A DNA stretch of 64,000 bases. It comes from Octopus vulgaris. Taxonomy: Eukaryota. The stretch lies in NCBI GenBank assembly GCA_951406725.2, contig OX597831.1:38068001-38132000 (forward strand), in the 5' to 3' direction. Position 1 is the stretch's first letter. Every line of letters starts with the position of its first letter. Both the position numbers and the translations under genes were made by a program. The notes under the pieces were generated by a model. It was not told the DNA's origin, did not search any database, and saw nothing but the letters and a program-made list of their open reading frames with translations. Shown here piece after piece: positions 6,823 through 30,980 of the stretch.

Positions 6823-7284
6823 TATCCATAGAAATTTTAAAAAAAGAAACAAAATATATTAAAATGCATTTTAACATGAAATGAAATTAATTTTCTTTCC
6901 CTCTTCTCAAACATTTAGCGTTGAAATATCAACAAAAAATTACGAATAAAAATAAGTATACAAACAAAACATTGTGTGTGTGTGTGTGTGTTTGCGTGCG
7001 AGCATAAGTGCGTGCATACGTACACACATATATATATATTTAGTTTAGTGCATGCATAAACACACATATGGATAATACGCATGCACACATATATGTATAT
7101 ACGTAACTCAATGCAAAGCTTGTTTATTGCATGTGATATAAATTTATTTTATATATATGTAGATAGATTATCTATATTCATTGTGAAAATTATACACATC
7201 CACTGACATACATACGGACATAATGACACGTATACGCAAAAAAACGTACATGAATACATACACACATACACATATGTGTGTGTG

Positions 7285-7332
<48 letters not shown>

Positions 7333-7657
7333 GTGGCAACGCATATATGCGCATGTTTATATGTGTATGTATACTTCTGTGTGTATGTATGTATGTATAT
7401 AAGGAAATAAAAATATATTTCTTCATAATCTTATTTCTGTTCACTACTTCATCATACATACATACATCGCATTCTTATTCTTTCTCTCTAATTATCGTAT
7501 ATATTTTATGCTGTTTTATGTATATGTATATATATATATTGTTATATTTCGGAATGGTCATATTGCCAGTTTAGCCAATAAAAACACACGCACTATATAT
7601 TTGGTGTTATTTTGCTTCAGTGATATTTATTTTTTACATTAATCTTAATCTTATTTC

Positions 7658-8221: not shown

Positions 8222-9317
8222 TCATATGTTGTGGTGTGCGCTATTGCTCCATTCTAGTTTTCTATTCAGGCTAGGTTTATTTTCTATTATATGTGTAGCT
8301 TCTGTAATTTGTCTAATTGTTGCATCTGTTCTATGTGTGGACAATATCTTAATCTCTATGTTATTGATTGATCCCCCGTGTTCTTGTTCGGCGTGTTGGT
8401 ACAGAATCGATGAGCTTTTACCTTCATGAGTTGTCTCCAATGTTCATTCACCCGCTCAACAATGCTTCTTGCAGTTTCCCCTACGTATGTTACTGTCTTG
8501 TTACTGCATCGTCCCTCTATACATCTTATACTATAGACCACATTTCTGGCTTTACAGTTCGTTTGTGGGCTAAATCTACATACAGTGCAATAATTATCCG
8601 TACAGAGAGTTCTACTAAAAGGATAGGTTCTACCAATTATAGATCTGATAGGGTTGCCTGGCTTTTCAACAACCTTAATTCTTAGTTTAAGTTTATCTAG
8701 GGTCCTTCTAAAGCGGTACGCTAGTTCACCTCCAGGGGTGGTGTCAACGAACATGACACTCTGGTATTTATGGCTATCATACCAAGAGTTGGCCTTCCTT
8801 ATTTTCTTTTTTGTCCTTTCTATAGTGTTCCATGACTTGTTCCTATAGAGTGGGCAAATCCCATTCCTATCATTACATAATATATTATCAAATTTCTTCA
8901 TGGCTCCTTTGTATACTCTGATCCTTTCTTTATGGCTGTAACCTGAGAACTGCATGCGGTGAATGAAATACTGTATGTGTCTCTTTAATTCTGTAGGCTC
9001 GCACATGCGTGACACATTTCTCATTATTCTGACGAGGTCTGCCATCAAAATATTGAATTTGGCATTGCCCGCAATGGCTGAGTTCCGGTGGATCAGGTAT
9101 TTTGAGGCCATAGGTTTTGCATAGTATGAATGAAGGATTTGGGTTTTATTTTTCACAATTTCTAGCCAGAGTTCAGTGTCTAGTACTGGTAGTCTATGGT
9201 TGGGGTGTTTAGTGGGGTAGTCTATTGTGACCTTAATACTCTGGTGGATGGAGTTAGCTATTTGCTGGATGCTCTCCATAGTATTAGTTTCTATTACTAT
9301 ATCAACCGTACTCTCTT
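8222..9317 (-). pseudogene. Truncated, frameshifted PLE RT-thumb/GIY-YIG coding region
   Basis: ORF 8356-9279 is almost identical to the C-terminal part of ORF 12011-13687; 1-nt frameshift near 8427 (CAACTCATGAAGG vs CAACTCAAGGAAGG). Confidence 0.9.
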
Positions 9318-9848
9318 ATTATTATTATTATTATTACTAATATTGTTGTTATACATACATACAAGCATATGTACTGATAATAATGGGTGGATGTAAACAC
9401 ATGAACAAAATTAGAACAAAAGCAACAACAACAAAAACAAAATACAAATTACAAGAATGTATGTAACCAGAAGATACAAATATTACAGACATCCCCCCCC
9501 CAACACACTAAATAAACATAGACGCACATAGAGATATAAGCATGCGCAAATGAAGACATACAATAGAAATACAAAATGGCTGACGGTTAGTAAGGAGAGA
9601 CACAAGTAAGTGAGAAGAAAACAAAGGACCACTGATGCGGTCACAGGAGTGTGACGAAAGAACTTTGGCCGAAATAAGATTAAGATTAATGTAAAAAATA
9701 AATATCACTGAAGCAAAATAACACCAAATATATAGTGCGTGTGTTTTTATTGGCTAAACTGGCAATATGACCATTCCGAAATATAACAATATCTGTTTCA
9801 ACACACGACTTCACATAAAAAATCTTACACAACAAATATTTAAACGTA
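9318..9848 (+). repeat. 5' pseudo-LTR of the PLE (direct repeat containing the ORF start codon)
   Basis: Near-identical to about 13908-14434; the ATG at 9767 lies inside the repeat, as expected for partial-tandem PLE organisation. Confidence 0.92.
9626..9670 (+). ncRNA. Minimal type I hammerhead-like motif in the 5' pLTR
   Basis: GGACCA CTGATGCG GTCAC-AGGAGT-GTGAC GAAA GAAC TT TGGCC: stem I, near-canonical core, 5-bp stem II, very short stem III. Confidence 0.5.
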
Positions 9849-11956
9849 CTAACGTGAGCCACAGCCAGGCTTGCAAGATGCTGAAGAACACTATATTTTG
9901 TTGCCTAAAGAAAACTGTGACAACGCAACAGCTTCGTTTTATAAAACAATGTGTCTCGTCCAGGATATGTATCAACAAGGTCACAGCCAACGTTAAACGG
10001 CTTGACCTCACTAACGGACAAGCGGAAAGACTAAAAAGGACGCTAATGGTAAATATTAGAAATAGAATATACAGAGAGCTGAGCGAACAAGAGAAGCGTA
10101 AACGTATATTTTTAAAAGAAATTAAAAGTATCACCACACGAAAGGAGAAAACCTTAATAATGGATATAATATATGAAGAAAACAGACATGTAATACACCA
10201 ATGCAATATCCATTTTAAGAGGAAGTTATCGTGGTTGAAACAGAAACGTCAATATGAGCTCGCAAAGGAAGAAAAGCAGAAGTATCCAGATACAATAAAT
10301 GGAATTATTATGGAAGATGTGCTACTACCAGAAGAGTTCAATAAAGACAATGAAGCGAACATCTATGGGGGAGTAACAACGGACCCAGATGAAATATCGA
10401 TACTTCAACTACCACCAAAGTATGCAGTGTATAGTAAAGTGAATACCATCAAATGCCTGTCCGAGATTGAAAAGTCGTTCACAAAAATACGTTGGAATTT
10501 AAATAGATACTATGACAACACTTGCGACAACAACAACAACGCGAAAAACACTAACCGCAGCAACAACACAAACAATAATGACCGCAACAATAACAACCGT
10601 AGCAACAAAAGCAACACGAACCCTAACAGCGGCAACAACAACAACAACACGAACCCTAACAGCGACAACAACAATAACAATAGAAAAAATGTATGCATAG
10701 ACACAAACAATAGATACAAAAACAAAAACACAAACAGAGAGAGAAAAATCGTATACAACAGCAACAACAACAACAATTATAGGGAGAACCGACACACAAA
10801 CACACACACAGATAGCCATAGTCACAAAAACACGAATAAAAGTTGTGTCATAGGGGTCACGATGGAGAATAAAGTTGAATGCAACAGGATCCTTGGACAG
10901 GGAGTCAGCGGACTTGAAACAGATAACAATATTCATAGGAACAAAAATAACGACCGCAACAAGGGGATTGACAGGGACCAACAGACAGACATAAAACCCA
11001 ACACTAATATAAACAACACATACACCAGAAACAGGAACAATGAATATATCACTAGCGATGATAGTAATAATGGCAATGGTAGGAATAAAGGTAATAACAA
11101 TAATAGTGGTAGTAGTAGTGGTGATGGTAACAGTAGAAGTAGTAATGAGGATAGTAGTGATAGTTGTGGTGGTAATAGGAATACTAGTAGTAGTAGTAGT
11201 AGTGGTAATGGTGATAATAATAATAGGAAGGCTGATGTTGGAAACAGTAACGATAATGAAGATAACCCTAGAGAGACCATTGACATGTATACCCATCCCT
11301 TTGACACTCAATTCTTCAATGTATGCGACAAAACTTACTGCATGAACCGAATTTATCCAACAACATTACCCTTCAACAAAAGGGTATACATCCCAAGACG
11401 TACTAATGACCACATGGAAGCACAGTTCACTATAGCTAGGACCAAACTTAGACAGATTTTAGGTTTATACATTAAGAGACAGAGACAGAATAAGACAGAT
11501 GCCCAACAACTAGGGATTAAACCTGCATGTGGCCTACAGAAGCTCATTCAGCGCACGAGGAACGGAGAGGTGATATGCCTTCCCACGGATAAGTCAGGCA
11601 GGATGTCAATAGACAGCTTACCGAACTACATCCAGGCAATGCAACCTCATATCGCCAATACAAAAGTAACAACTGTACAGGCGCATGAGGAGAGAGAAAA
11701 GGTCCTCAATGCCCACATGATGATGTGGACAATTGTTCTGGGACCTCAGAAACGTACTGCAAAGAATTTCCAAGCCTGGAACAATGATATCCCGGCACTG
11801 TATGGACTTCGCAAGGACCATAAAGGTTTTACTGACCCTATAGCAGGACCACCAACAAGACCAGTCTGTGGAGCGAATATCGCTAGCAATTACAGAATCT
11901 CCTACTTCCTCTCAATGATCATACGCCCTATAATCAGGATGTCACCTGATGTATGA
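9767..11956 (+). CDS. PLE polyprotein, N-terminal part (N-terminal domain, low-complexity insert, first RT motifs); ends at an in-frame TGA
   Basis: 729-aa ORF with PLE motifs LPPKYAV, PTDKSGR, PALYGLRKDHK and RPVC; the same frame stays open after TGA 11954-11956. Confidence 0.85.
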   Translation: MTIPKYNNICFNTRLHIKNLTQQIFKRTNVSHSQACKMLKNTIFCCLKKTVTTQQLRFIKQCVSSRICINKVTANVKRLDLTNGQAERLKRTLMVNIRNRIYRELSEQEKRKRIFLKEIKSITTRKEKTLIMDIIYEENRHVIHQCNIHFKRKLSWLKQKRQYELAKEEKQKYPDTINGIIMEDVLLPEEFNKDNEANIYGGVTTDPDEISILQLPPKYAVYSKVNTIKCLSEIEKSFTKIRWNLNRYYDNTCDNNNNAKNTNRSNNTNNNDRNNNNRSNKSNTNPNSGNNNNNTNPNSDNNNNNRKNVCIDTNNRYKNKNTNRERKIVYNSNNNNNYRENRHTNTHTDSHSHKNTNKSCVIGVTMENKVECNRILGQGVSGLETDNNIHRNKNNDRNKGIDRDQQTDIKPNTNINNTYTRNRNNEYITSDDSNNGNGRNKGNNNNSGSSSGDGNSRSSNEDSSDSCGGNRNTSSSSSSGNGDNNNRKADVGNSNDNEDNPRETIDMYTHPFDTQFFNVCDKTYCMNRIYPTTLPFNKRVYIPRRTNDHMEAQFTIARTKLRQILGLYIKRQRQNKTDAQQLGIKPACGLQKLIQRTRNGEVICLPTDKSGRMSIDSLPNYIQAMQPHIANTKVTTVQAHEEREKVLNAHMMMWTIVLGPQKRTAKNFQAWNNDIPALYGLRKDHKGFTDPIAGPPTRPVCGANIASNYRISYFLSMIIRPIIRMSPDV

Positions 11957-12010
11957 GACAGCACAGAAGATCTCCTAAGCAGGATCAGTGACTGTAACAA
12001 AACTTGTGAC

Positions 12011-13687
12011 TTGACAGGATGTATAGTAGGTAGCATGGATGTGGTATCCCTATACCCATCGATTGACGTAGATTTTGCAGTGGAGAAGTGCGTGGAGATG
12101 ATCAACGAGAGCCAGGTGGAGTTCTGTAATGTCGACACAGAAGAACTGGGCCTCCTACTTAGACTGACATATAATAGTGAATACTTAGATAAACATAATC
12201 TTAGTAGTTTCTGCCCCAGTAGATGTTTAAGAGGTAGACCGCCTACAATTACTTCTATGGCTAGGAAGACACATATAGAAAGATGGCGCGGATGGACCAG
12301 AGCCATACGGAGCCCCGCAAATGTCCATCAGGTAAAGAAAATGATCGCACATGCACTAGGAGCTAGTATAAGAGTTACCCTAAAAGGCCACACATTTAAA
12401 TTTAATAATAAAATATATGCCCAGGACGAGGGGGCAGCCATCGGTGTTAGTATCGCTGGTGATGTGGCCAACCTCTTCATGGTATGGTGGGAAAGAAGGC
12501 TTAAAGAATGCCTACTGCAGAAATCCATACTCGTAAACATGTACTCTCGCTATGTTGATGATATCAATATAGTAGTAAAGGCACCCCCACAAGAGAGTAC
12601 GGTTGATATAGTAATAGAAACTAATACTATGGAGAGCATCCAGCAAATAGCTAACTCCATCCACCAGAGTATTAAGGTCACAATAGACTACCCCACTAAA
12701 CACCCCAACCATAGACTACCAGTACTAGACACTGAACTCTGGCTAGAAATTGTGAAAAATAAAACCCAAATCCTTCATTCATACTATGCAAAACCTATGG
12801 CCTCAAAATACCTGATCCACCGGAACTCAGCCATTGCGAGCAATGCCAAATTCAATATTTTGATGGCAGACCTCGTCAGAATAATGAGAAATGTGTCACG
12901 CATGTGCGAGCCTACAGAATTAAAGAGACACATACAGTATTTCATTCACCGCATGCAGTTCTCAGGTTACAGCCATAAAGAAAGGATCAGAGTATACAAA
13001 GGAGCCATGAAGAAATTTGATAATATATTATGTAATGATAGGAATGGGATTTGCCCACTCTATAGGAACAAGTCATGGAACACTATAGAAAGGACAAAAA
13101 AGAAAATAAGGAAGGCCAACTCTTGGTATGATAGCCATAAATACCAGAGTGTCATGTTCGTTGACACCACCCCTGGAGGTGAACTAGCGTACCGCTTTAG
13201 AAGGACCCTAGATAAACTTAAACTAAGAATTAAGGTTGTTGAAAAGCCAGGCAACCCTATCAGATCTATAATTGGTAGAACCTATCCTTTTAGTAGAACT
13301 CTCTGTACGGATAATTATTGCACTGTATGTAGATTTAGCCCACAAACGAACTGTAAAGCCAGAAATGTGGTCTATAGTATAAGATGTATAGAGGGACGAT
13401 GCAGTAACAAGACAGTAACATACGTAGGGGAAACTGCAAGAAGCATTGGTGAGCGGGTGAATGAACATTGGAGACAACTCAAGGAAGGTAAAAGCTCATC
13501 GATTCTGTACCAACACGCCGAACAAGAACACGGGGGATCAATCAATAACATAGAGATTAAGATATTGTCCACACATAGAACAGATGCAACAATTAGACAA
13601 ATTACAGAAGCTACACATATAATAGAAAATAAACCTAGCCTGAATAGAAAACTAGAATGGAGCAATAGCGCACACCACAACATATGA
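12011..13687 (+). CDS. PLE reverse transcriptase core plus C-terminal GIY-YIG endonuclease (same frame as the upstream ORF)
   Basis: [13 protein letters not shown] (motif A), [20 protein letters not shown] (B'), YSRYVDDI (C), LPVLD, linker [11 protein letters not shown] motifs NVVYSIRC...YVGETAR...EH...H...EA...PSLN. Confidence 0.92.
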
Positions 13688-13907
13688 CAATAGTGGATCC
13701 TGCAAACATAATAAATACACAGGTAATTAAAGAAATAGAAATGAATATCTATGTGTATGTATATGTGTATATATATGTATATGTATATGTGTATATATGT
13801 GTGTATATATGTATATATATATATGTATATGTATGTGTATGTATATATATATATATATGTATATGTATATTCTTTTTTTTTTTTTTTTTTTTTTCTCGAT
13901 TAGATTT

Positions 13908-27459: not shown

Positions 27460-28533
27460 ACAATTGTCCTTATACGATAAGTATATTTTTTCTCTAGCAT
27501 TGATACGACTCTTGATCTGTCTCTTTCTCTCTCTCTCTCCTCCCTTATCCCCCTTCTTTCTTTCTTTCCCTCTCCATCCGTTCCCCCTCCTTCCCCCCTT
27601 CCACGTTTCTCTATCTCTCTTACCTCCACTCCCCTCGATATGTCTCTTTCTTCTCCTCCCTCGTCCACCTTCTCTCTCTCTTCATCTGTCCCTTTCTCCT
27701 GTGTTTTGTTCTCACGTGACCGCTAGCCACTGCTGGGCGCCCTTTTCGTTCCAGCAGTCGTCGAAACAACACGTATTTGTTCGTCTCCCTGCGGCCATTA
27801 GGCACTACTTCATTAGCCAGCCCCAACTCAACTCGTCCTGTCGAAAGACCCTTGTCCTACGTCCTGGTTTTGTTTTGTTTTTTATCTTTACCGTTATTGT
27901 TTTTACGTTTTTGTATTCTTATTCGTGCTTTCCTTATTGTTGTCACGTATTCTGTATTTTTTTTCGTGTACTTCGTTCGTTTTCCGTCCTCGTGTTGTAT
28001 ACATTCGAAGCTTTCTTCCAAGGGATCTAATGCGCTTGTCTTAGATTTTCCTTTGGGGGCTGCCCAGATCGGAGCAATCTCAAGATTAATCAGCCGAAAT
28101 TGCGAAGATGATCTGGTTCTTGACTGATGACTGAGGGCTTCGAATGTCCCGTCCTGTGGTTCTTGTGTCGTCTCTTTGGTGTTTCATGTTCTTGTCCATG
28201 TCTGTATTTATTTTTTACTGTTTACATATATATATATATATATATATAAATTCAGAGAAAAACCACTATTATGCAATTCAAACAATGATATACATAAATC
28301 AAATCATAAATAAAAAATAAAATATATTTTAAAACGCATAACTAGAAAAAAAAAGTACAAAAATGAATTAACAATATATAATAAGTAATAAGTATAATAA
28401 GTAATATATAATAAGTATACCGGAACAAACGCATAAATGTGAGACAAGGAGGAAAAAGAGTACTGAAGTACGAATGGGAACGTGAAACTCTGAGTAACAG
28501 TTTTTGTGATATTTCTGCTACTTGTATATAAAG

Positions 28534-28594
<61 letters not shown>

Positions 28595-28853
28595 CAATTG
28601 TTATATTTATATACTTACTCGCTGACAATTTTCTCTTTTCCACTAGGCCGTTGGTAGCGATAAATTTCTATTGAATTTTTTTGCTACCCTAAATTGACTA
28701 ATTGATAATTTTCTGAATAATTCTGAGATTGAATCGGCAGTTTATATTTACTGCTGATAAGTTTGGCGCGAATACGTCAGTCTTGAAAATTTTAAGACAG
28801 ATATTCCCTAGGCATCGATACAGACGCCTCGTGTATATTTGTCTCTCCCAGGT

Positions 28854-28953
28854 TTTTTACTGATGAAATGTAACCTATGGTAGATTAGCTTAATTTAATT
28901 TAATTAAGCTAATTTAATCATTAATGACACAGAAACGTTGCAACGTCTAAAAG
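28854..28953 (+). ncRNA. Type I hammerhead motif, array unit 1 (GUC at 28945-28947)
   Basis: TTTTA CTGATGA...long hairpin...GAAA CGTTGCAACG TC TAAAA; the base of stem II has a G-to-A change in this unit. Confidence 0.7.
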
Positions 28954-29327
28954 ATGAATTAGGGTAAATGTTTTTGAATTTTCACCTAATTTTTGAATTA
29001 CTACTACTTGGCGGTGTGAGTTATGGCTGCTCTTTCTGGTGGACGAATGACCTGTTAGGGTCATTCCTAAATTGTTATATTTATATACTTAGTCGCTGAC
29101 TATTTTCTCTTTTCCACTAGGCCGTTGGTAGCGATAAATTTCTATTAAATTTTTTTGCTACCCTAAATTGACTAATTGATAATTTTCTGAATAATTCTGA
29201 GATTGAATCGGCAGTTTATATTTACTGCTGATAAGTTTGGCGCGAATACGTCAGTCTTGAAAATTTTAAGACAGATATTCCCTAGGCATCGATACAGACG
29301 CCTCGTGTATATTTGTCTCTCCCAGGT

Positions 29328-29427
29328 TTTTTACTGATGAAGTGTAACCTATGGTAGATTAGCTTAATTTAATTTAATTAAGCTAATTTAATCATTAATG
29401 ACACAGAAACGTTGCAACGTCTAAAAG
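29328..29427 (+). ncRNA. Type I hammerhead motif, array unit 2 (predicted cleavage after 29421)
   Basis: TTTTA CTGATGA A GTGT...ACAC A GAAA CGTTGCAACG TC TAAAA. Confidence 0.78.
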
Positions 29428-29801
29428 ATGAATTAGGGTAACTGTTTTTGAATTTTCACCTAATTTTTGAATTACTACTACTTGGCGGTGTGAGTTATGG
29501 CTGCTCTTTCTGGTGGACGAATGACCTGTTAGGGTCATTCCTAAATTGTTATATTTATATACTTAGTCGCTGACTATTTTCTCTTTTCCACTAGGCCGTT
29601 GGTAGCGATAAATTTCTATTGAATTTTTTTGCTACCCTAAATTGACTAATTGATAATTTTCTGAATAATTCTGAGATTGAATCGGCAGTTTATATTTACT
29701 GCTGATAAGTTTGGCGCGAATACGTCAGTCTTGAAAATTTTAAGACAGATATTCCCTAGGCATCGATACAGACGCCTCGTGTATATTTGTCTCTCCCAGG
29801 T

Positions 29802-29901
29802 TTTTTACTGATGAAGTGTAACCTATGGTAGATTAGCTTAATTTAATTTAATTAAGCTAATTTAATCATTAATGACACAGAAACGTTGCAACGTCTAAAA
29901 G
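29802..29901 (+). ncRNA. Type I hammerhead motif, array unit 3 (predicted cleavage after 29895)
   Basis: Same motif as unit 2. Confidence 0.78.
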
Positions 29902-30276
29902 ATGAATTAGGGTAAATGTTTTTGAATTTTCACCTAATTTTTGAATTACTACTACTTGGCGGTGTGAGTTATGGCTGCTCTTTTCTGGTGGACGAATGAC
30001 CTGTTAGGGTCATTCCTAAATTGTTATATTTATATACTTAGTCGCTGACTATTTTCTCTTTTCCACTAGGCCGTTGGTAGCGATAAATTTCTATTGAATT
30101 TTTTTGCTACCCTAAATTGACTAATTGATAATTTTCTGAATAATTCTGAGATTGAATCGGCAGTTTATATTTACTGCTGATAAGTTTGGCGCGAATACGT
30201 CAGTCTTGAAAATTTTAAGACAGATATTCCCTAGGCATCGATACAGACGCCTCGTGTATATTTGTCTCTCCCAGGT

Positions 30277-30376
30277 TTTTTACTGATGAAGTGTAACCTA
30301 TGGTAGATTAGCTTAATTTAATTTAATTAAGCTAATTTAATCATTAATGACACAGAAACGTTGCAACGTCTAAAAG
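30277..30376 (+). ncRNA. Type I hammerhead motif, array unit 4 (predicted cleavage after 30370)
   Basis: Same motif as unit 2. Confidence 0.78.
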
Positions 30377-30980
30377 ATGAATTAGGGTAAATGTTTTTGA
30401 ATTTTCACCTAATTTTTGAATTACTACTACTTGGCGGTGTGAGTTATGGCTGCTCTTTCTGGTGGACGAATGACCTGTTAGGGTCATTCCTAAATTGTTA
30501 TATTTATATACTTAGTCGCTGACTATTTTCTCTTTTCCACTAGGCCGTTGGTAGCGATAAATTTCTATTGAATTTTTTTGCTACCCTAAATTGACTAATA
30601 TATATATATATATGTATAATTGATTAGAGAACGAACATTACACTCGGACCAACGACTTTATTTAACCCCACGCTTCTAAACATTCCATCATATATAGAAT
30701 ATATTTTGTATTTTTATATGTGCACATATATATGTATATATATTTAGCTTCGGTGTTTTTATATGTATTCCTTTCAGATGTTGATGAAATGTATGGAAGC
30801 GTGGAGTTATATAAAGTGGCTTGCCTCAATTTGATGTTTATTCTCTAATCAATGATTTTTTGTCTCTGTCTCAATTTCACTTGAGCACATCCTTTTTGGA
30901 CCCCTATATATCTTTTTTTGGTTTCCATAAAAATAAACGAAAATTATTTCTCTTCATATATATATGCTTACATGTATATA

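Follow-up and report, generated by a model that had tools for sequence, protein, structure and literature searches.

Among the repeats of the Octopus vulgaris genome, a short tandem array on contig OX597831.1 raises the question of how a non-coding sequence came to be multiplied head to tail within a TA repeat. The window, the whole stretch of 64,000 nucleotides analysed (positions 38,068,001 to 38,132,000, forward strand), carries the array at 28596-30599 of the plus strand, where Tandem Repeats Finder reports a period of 474, 4.2 copies and 99% matches. Units start at 28596, 29070, 29544, 30019 and 30493, measure 474, 474, 475, 474 and about 108 bp, and differ from one another in six columns across the four full units and the partial fifth. 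They are low in GC, are bounded on both sides by TA runs (28525-28593 by repeat call, 30598-30617 by sequence) and hold no stop-to-stop frame longer than 55 aa, making the array non-coding. Repeat finder and frame check are therefore in agreement with the initial annotation, which had described four 474/475-bp units and a partial fifth, lacking an ORF and lying in (TA)n. By structure, the array is classed here as a non-LTR retrozyme; the reading favoured below, held to be rather more probable than its competitors taken together, is that it represents one insertion of a young non-coding hammerhead family, copied by the enzyme of a Penelope-like element (PLE) from a circular RNA monomer.

Each full unit comprises CTGATGA, a 65-nt stem II domain, GAAA, a 12-nt palindromic stem III, GTC and an AU-rich stem I, providing the CUGANGA, GAAA and NUH core with stems I-III. 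The motifs occupy 28852-28955, 29326-29429, 29800-29903 and 30275-30378 (all plus strand), with CTGATGA at 28860, 29334, 29808 and 30283, matching the claim of one type I hammerhead per unit, while the GTC ends at 28947, 29421, 29895 and 30370, the positions after which cleavage had been predicted. Stem III lies at 28935-28946, 29409-29420, 29883-29894 and 30358-30369 on the same strand, and a paired double change within it separates two subfamilies. A purpose-written type I hammerhead descriptor, run over both strands of the 64 kb window, matched units 2-4 only, unit 1 being missed owing to a G-to-A substitution that disrupts the following stem II pair and leaves an additional mismatch at 28868. 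The Rfam hammerhead search that had been proposed as a check gave no match at E up to 10, a likely reason being the 65-nt stem II domain.

The genome (2.8 Gb, 227 contigs) was searched for further copies. The unit gave 1484 first-look candidates, 39 of which were scored. A 22-nt core-plus-stem III pattern matched 121 times in the window's subfamily and 197 times in its second-subfamily variant, giving 318 exact hammerhead 22-mers across both, with no genome match for the reversed 22-mer controls. Seventy loci were mapped, composed of the window, 37 of the first-look candidates and 18 plus 14 from the 22-mer searches; these were the best-scoring or first-listed among the 318 exact matches and 1484 candidates and form a non-random sample. 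Copies are spread over more than 25 contigs, and in the mapped loci the insertion consists of unit sequence throughout, from TA run to TA run, unlike an LTR element. The genome search suggested in the initial annotation thus recovers dispersed arrays in (TA)n, and a duplication restricted to a single locus is not borne out. The monomer had also been considered unusually long, whereas 474 nt falls within the 51-972 bp reported for retrozyme consensus sequences by Li et al. (10.64898/2026.07.22.740005).

Four sister families share the layout of the window's family, referred to as family A. Family B (471 bp, 71% identical to the unit) has 2540 first-look candidates, family C (489 bp, 73% identical) presents a long array with an inverted arm, family D is a fragment and family E is distant; B, C and E possess paired stem II bases (loci of the four families: L086-L115; L176:6112-9158; L156:2829-3078; L058:5300-6700). 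Further hammerhead-like motifs occur in repeats at L041:4380-5430, L075 (about 7050-7520), L057, L119 and L171, with tandem spacings of 593 in L041 and 476 in L075, and several of these combine a long stem II with a palindromic stem III. Many hammerhead repeat families seem to reside in this genome.

Conservation of the hammerhead fold is borne out by paired changes across families. With unit positions numbered from window position 29070, positions 343/348 of stem III read T-A in 43 loci and A-T in 26, with no intermediates, an older subfamily has one stem II pair swapped, and families B, C and E retain core and stems with different letters. In a 10-sequence alignment, two-sided changes are present at 9 of 14 hammerhead pairs, and 86% of cells pair, compared with 37-47% in slid controls. 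All three stems covary across four related families, constituting support rather than a p-value because the sequences are related; with 9-10 such sequences behind the counts, significance is overstated by the shuffle control. Alignment A1 misregisters family C stem II and family E stem III, lowering the pair counts, and anchored pairs were compared separately. The A-A mismatch previously noted at the base of stem II is real in the sequence. A 10.1-11.1 pair at this position is a usual hammerhead criterion and is absent from family A, which has A at 10.1 in 64/65 loci and at 11.1 in 69/69, while the sister families have G-C or A-U. As A-A is fixed in family A down to copies of about 86% identity, it is likely a tolerated variant. 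An axolotl hammerhead with U-U at 10.1-11.1 is reported to cleave (PMC7229834).

The predicted cleavage-to-cleavage monomer, 474 nt at 29422-29895 (plus strand) and the putative circle, has a predicted fold of -127 kcal/mol when closed (z -6.8 against 60 shuffles), and monomer structure is predicted to be strong in three families (z -5 to -7). Stem I probability in ViennaRNA is near 0 in both circular and linear context. Only the isolated motif folds near the active form, predicted at 0.7 kcal/mol above the minimum; in its sequence context the ribozyme is predicted not to fold. Stem III-mediated dimers or protein help could rescue such misfolding, dimeric hammerhead folding via a palindromic stem III having been described (PMC4209133). 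For the Poseidon PLE in vitro, insertion was unimpaired by hammerhead mutants and the main substrate was unprocessed RNA (PMC11167929), and 8/9 frog retrozyme dimers showed no cleavage (10.64898/2026.07.22.740005).

The mapped insertions share a distinctive architecture. Their 3' ends fall at two fixed sites approximately 97 nt apart, site A near unit position 8-11 and site B near 105-107, with site A alignments extending to 18 because the unit there resembles a TA repeat. Inverted arms arranged back to back are found in 38/70 loci, of which 34 combine one A with one B end, none A with A or B with B, and 4 have one odd end. A further 28 loci are single-armed (18 A, 9 B, 1 other) and 4/70 are otherwise arranged. 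The A and B ends meet (TA)n in 102/104 cases, a target in which duplications of the target site are masked, being unreadable in TA runs. Inner 5' ends are variable and scattered round the unit; a 5'-end cluster just upstream of the hammerhead was considered and rejected (largest 30-nt cluster, p 0.64). The annotation had expected dispersed arrays in (TA)n with differing start phases, and the dispersal stands, while random phases give way to two fixed 3' sites.

In the window, the main arm (28596-30599, plus strand) comprises 4.23 head-to-tail 474/475-bp units and ends at start site B. Its last portion, 30501-30599 (plus), is a PLE-type tail of about 97 nt running from site A (about 30500) to site B (about 30597-30599) and containing a hairpin at 30550-30585 (plus). 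At the opposite end, 28592-28599 on the minus strand is a stub, probably left by a second, inverted arm that terminates at start site A and overlaps the main arm via a 4-nt palindrome. Only about 3 bases of this stub depart from the TA repeat, which makes it weak evidence when taken alone; the left end of the array would then be the remains of that arm, probably, rather than an arbitrary start phase. Comparable stubs, of the complementary kind, occur at L038, L077, L080 and L081, giving five single-arm loci with a stub of the complementary end as judged by eye, window included. A conserved RNA structure surrounds both putative reverse transcriptase (RT) start sites at 30447-30600 (plus) and is repeated at each unit junction; 11/38 consensus pairs near sites A and B display two-sided changes (9 sequences, four families), and this fold is likely a recognition element.

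This layout corresponds to that of PLEs. Craig et al. describe PLE insertions as partial tandems with an inverted 5'-truncated copy and a tail of 30-40 bp, frequently at one end only (PMC8557442). Frangieh et al. demonstrate in vitro that two internal RT start sites delimit the tail, which they term unique to PLEs, and that the PLE protein cuts and extends both target strands (PMC11167929). From the match of layout and tail to these descriptions, the family is inferred with high confidence to be PLE-mobilised and non-autonomous, and the PLE link claimed at the outset gains the hallmarks of such elements in a dispersed, non-coding, hammerhead-bearing (TA)n tandem family.

The arrays also record what was copied. 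Across 38 multi-pass loci, subfamily-diagnostic sites were mixed in 4/1430 tests. A private variant is present in every pass of 8 loci, extending across both arms in 5, and L060 has two variants outside the masked region in 9/9 passes. Within-locus polymorphisms are singletons in 52/55 cases, and minor variants recur as minor in a second locus in 0/45. Arrays of one haplotype over both arms indicate that the units were most likely born together and that both arms were copied from one template. Arms reach 6.8 units, and 41/104 run through at least two predicted cleavage sites, where 5' ends show no enrichment (1 seen, 2.4 expected). At unit positions 340-361 no indels were found in 178 passes, one pass being a duplicate; the overall figure is 192 indel columns over 79,630 positions, chiefly within homopolymers. 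Single copying of a cleaved linear monomer is ruled out, because multi-unit arms pass scarlessly through the cleavage sites. Reduction to a single monomer and renewed expansion upon insertion is the pattern that a circle would provide. The rolling-circle proposal had initially been linked to the non-integer copy number. Copying of one monomer past unit length finds indirect support here, but copy number alone does not demonstrate it: 3' ends occupy two fixed internal sites, and variation is limited to the inner 5' ends. At L035 the two arms share a period-two alternation of one variant in matching phase, and at L133 such an alternation is seen on one arm, as expected from a dimer template.

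An RNA circle as template is accordingly regarded as reasonably probable, and a fuller scheme, judged slightly better than an even proposition, would have two RTs priming at two fixed sites on the same circle, one per target strand, and completing several laps each, with dimer circles as occasional templates and the A-A variant tolerated. The array would first be transcribed, its hammerheads releasing the 474-nt monomer and occasionally a dimer, possibly after pairing through the stem III palindrome or with protein help, and the monomer would then be ligated into a circle. A PLE RT/GIY-YIG protein acting in trans would bind the structured region near the unit junction and nick both strands of a (TA)n site, allowing the two target ends to prime on a single RNA molecule, one from site A and one from site B. 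Each RT would then keep circling its template, copying as many as about 7 units, and joining of the two cDNAs head to head would generate a pair of inverted arms, just one of which carries the tail. In the window, the product would be a B arm of 4.2 units with a stub of an A arm.

The most serious competitor retains PLE mobilisation and alters the template, which would be an uncleaved linear multimer or a linear monomer copied by template jumping, with the hammerhead weak or serving another step. The A-A mismatch, AU-rich stem I and predicted misfolding favour it, as does unprocessed RNA being the main in vitro PLE substrate (PMC11167929), and a linear multimer would likewise be scarless at the cleavage site. 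Copying a linear multimer, however, could only keep or shorten arrays and should transmit unit-specific variants, whereas subfamily variants are fixed in all units, with the four mixed tests as the exception, and minor variants are not common to loci (a comparison of little power if the parents are very young). Template jumps might leave scars, and none was seen in the 178 passes. A linear template is therefore viewed as unlikely, though worth serious consideration.

A second possibility is that recombination releases a 474-bp DNA circle, whose rolling transcription yields a multimer RNA for the PLE enzyme to copy. This route would fare no worse than an RNA circle in accounting for the single haplotype of each locus, the absence of scars at junctions and the period-two patterns, but it gives no reason for hammerhead stem covariation across families of approximately 70% identity, nor for the strong predicted structure of the monomer, and is rated improbable. 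More doubtful still is the insertion of single PLE-derived monomers later expanded by unequal crossing over, a local-amplification model of the kind discussed by Li et al. (10.64898/2026.07.22.740005). At L048 a variant is present in 2/7 passes of one arm and 0 of the other, a partial pattern unexplained by a single circle and suggesting some DNA-level duplication. Divergence is also nominally lower within arms than between them (0.0014 vs 0.0019 in 18 loci, p 0.17, not significant; 0.0014 and 0.0020 when pooled). Against such expansion stand the predominance of singletons among within-locus variants, the lack of significance of the arm difference, the extension of private variants over both inverted arms, and the presence, at loci still 99% identical to the window unit, of arms as long as 5.3 units. 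A pLTR belonging to an autonomous PLE, with arrays as its truncated copies, or an ordinary local duplication, alternatives the annotation had itself raised, can be dismissed as barely credible, since the PLE architecture, the resemblance of frog retrozymes to pLTRs (10.64898/2026.07.22.740005) and the reading of only 70 loci from 318 exact matches and 1484 candidates are outweighed by strictly head-to-tail units, copies on many contigs and continuation of the unit into a PLE ORF in 0 of the 70 mapped loci.

Returning to the circular RNA reading, a PLE acting in trans would be expected as a partner. Family A as an autonomous PLE was rejected, an ORF with RT plus GIY-YIG being absent, and none of the ORF-bearing PLE loci sampled in the genome has significant similarity to the unit. 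The window itself contains a separate PLE at 8359-13750, with RT and GIY-YIG matches and TA flanks. Its main copy (plus strand) has frames at 9758-11953 and 11957-13684 with one stop between, an inverted 5'-truncated copy accompanies it, both outer ends look alike, and the hammerhead descriptor finds no match in it. This element was discarded as partner, showing no similarity to the unit, and no significant similarity was found in 30 decayed Hydra-like loci, 20 loci of another PLE RT family or 8 stretches around GIY-YIG/long-ORF matches. Unit-like matches beside PLEs at L156 and L166 proved to be separate sister-family insertions in TA. Two more young-looking RT families with long open frames (L198, L199, L200, L201), one frame of 781 aa with GIY-YIG and ending in TA and another of about 1100 aa, likewise lack similarity to the unit.

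A young Hydra-like PLE (L206-L209; G000:C1:119.51-119.53 Mb and others) is the best partner candidate by behaviour, a matter of resemblance and not of assignment. Its open frames of 867-899 aa look intact, with a DKT motif present, RW but not RWK, and a degenerate linker; no Pfam match was obtained. Units of 3623 bp are arranged head to tail, with four EN matches at 3623-bp spacing on C1, and insertions in (TA)n targets have two fixed ends 157 nt apart, one of each kind in 3/3 inverted loci. It also has a hammerhead in which stem II is long and stem III palindromic. DNA similarity to families A, B and C is not significant (best E 0.9, for A).

At the RNA level, none of the sequencing runs containing the unit is recorded as RNA. 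Two runs guessed to be RNA, X1 and X3, each give one closed 504-nt (474+30) contig over the unit, which fits circle and tandem equally, as contigs cannot separate the two. Run X3 also has 9 A-to-G changes among 10 listed differences at window 29945-30006, in one low-depth contig on the hammerhead-sense strand, and 7/9 of these positions are never G across 68-69 genomic loci; this cluster gives a faint hint of A-to-I editing of a hammerhead-sense transcript. A donor-like site at 29912 and an acceptor-like site at 30069 bracket start site A at each unit junction and are partly kept in the sister families. PLEs are known for retained introns. An intron at 29912-30069 was nevertheless rejected, no spliced joint being found in the runs and a covarying helix also explaining the acceptor-like bases.

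The retrozyme kind is already known, and copying of retrozyme circles into tandem DNA by PLEs was proposed earlier (PMC7229834, PMC4209133), with the link backed by co-occurrence and pLTR similarity (10.64898/2026.07.22.740005). Evidence at the level of single insertions, namely the tail, the use of a separate start site by each arm, and arrays that are clonal, was not found in the literature covered, though supplements and subscription papers may contain more. No cephalopod retrozyme paper was found either, and the supplements of PMC7229834 and 10.64898/2026.07.22.740005 may list one. The value of the octopus family lies in being young enough for single insertions to be read, revealing tail, start site per strand, one template and several laps. 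If the circle reading is true, the working of a Penelope-type enzyme is recorded in these genomic arrays, which would directly attest the circular RNA route, with copying past unit length, that has long been proposed for retrozymes and PLEs. A 474-nt RNA, together with an intact candidate enzyme from the same genome, brings the circle model within reach of direct tests, and the family bears on the role of hammerheads in PLEs.

The family can be compared with several known systems. Like the metazoan non-LTR retrozymes (PMC7229834; 10.64898/2026.07.22.740005), it consists of non-coding, low-GC tandem units of a few hundred bp with one type I hammerhead each, dispersed in a genome that also houses PLEs, with a monomer predicted to be strongly self-paired. 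It departs from them in the 65-nt stem II domain, the A-A base and the 12-nt palindromic stem III. Its hammerhead is predicted to be blocked in the circle, while those of metazoan circles are mostly predicted free (PMC7229834), and circular expression, part of the description of metazoan retrozymes, is putative in the octopus family. No mention of inverted arms, of two fixed ends or of (TA)n targeting was found in the text of these two sources: "tail" is absent from that of 10.64898/2026.07.22.740005 and "inverted" appears once, in a reference title, while the text of PMC7229834 contains neither "inverted" nor "microsatellite". Those features are instead shared with EN+ PLEs (PMC8557442, PMC11167929), which have a tandem plus an inverted 5'-truncated arm, a tail at one end only, fixed internal start sites, AT-rich or (TA)n targets and a hammerhead upstream of the start sites. 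Unlike EN+ PLEs, the octopus family lacks an ORF, has a tail of about 97 nt in place of 30-40 bp and builds arms of up to 6.8 whole units. Its one-A-one-B rule is strict, whereas PLE start sites in vitro show no strand difference (PMC11167929). Non-autonomous Chlamys PLEs, for example MRC1, are similarly multicopy, head-to-tail, PLE-made insertions, yet their 3' end generally resembles an autonomous family, and most Chlamys lack canonical hammerheads (PMC8557442). The Hydra-like PLE of the octopus genome differs in its ORF of at least 867 aa and its 157-nt tail, and is alike in being young, head-to-tail and inserted in (TA)n, in its long stem II and palindromic stem III, and in its two fixed ends, of which end A resembles end A of the retrozyme.
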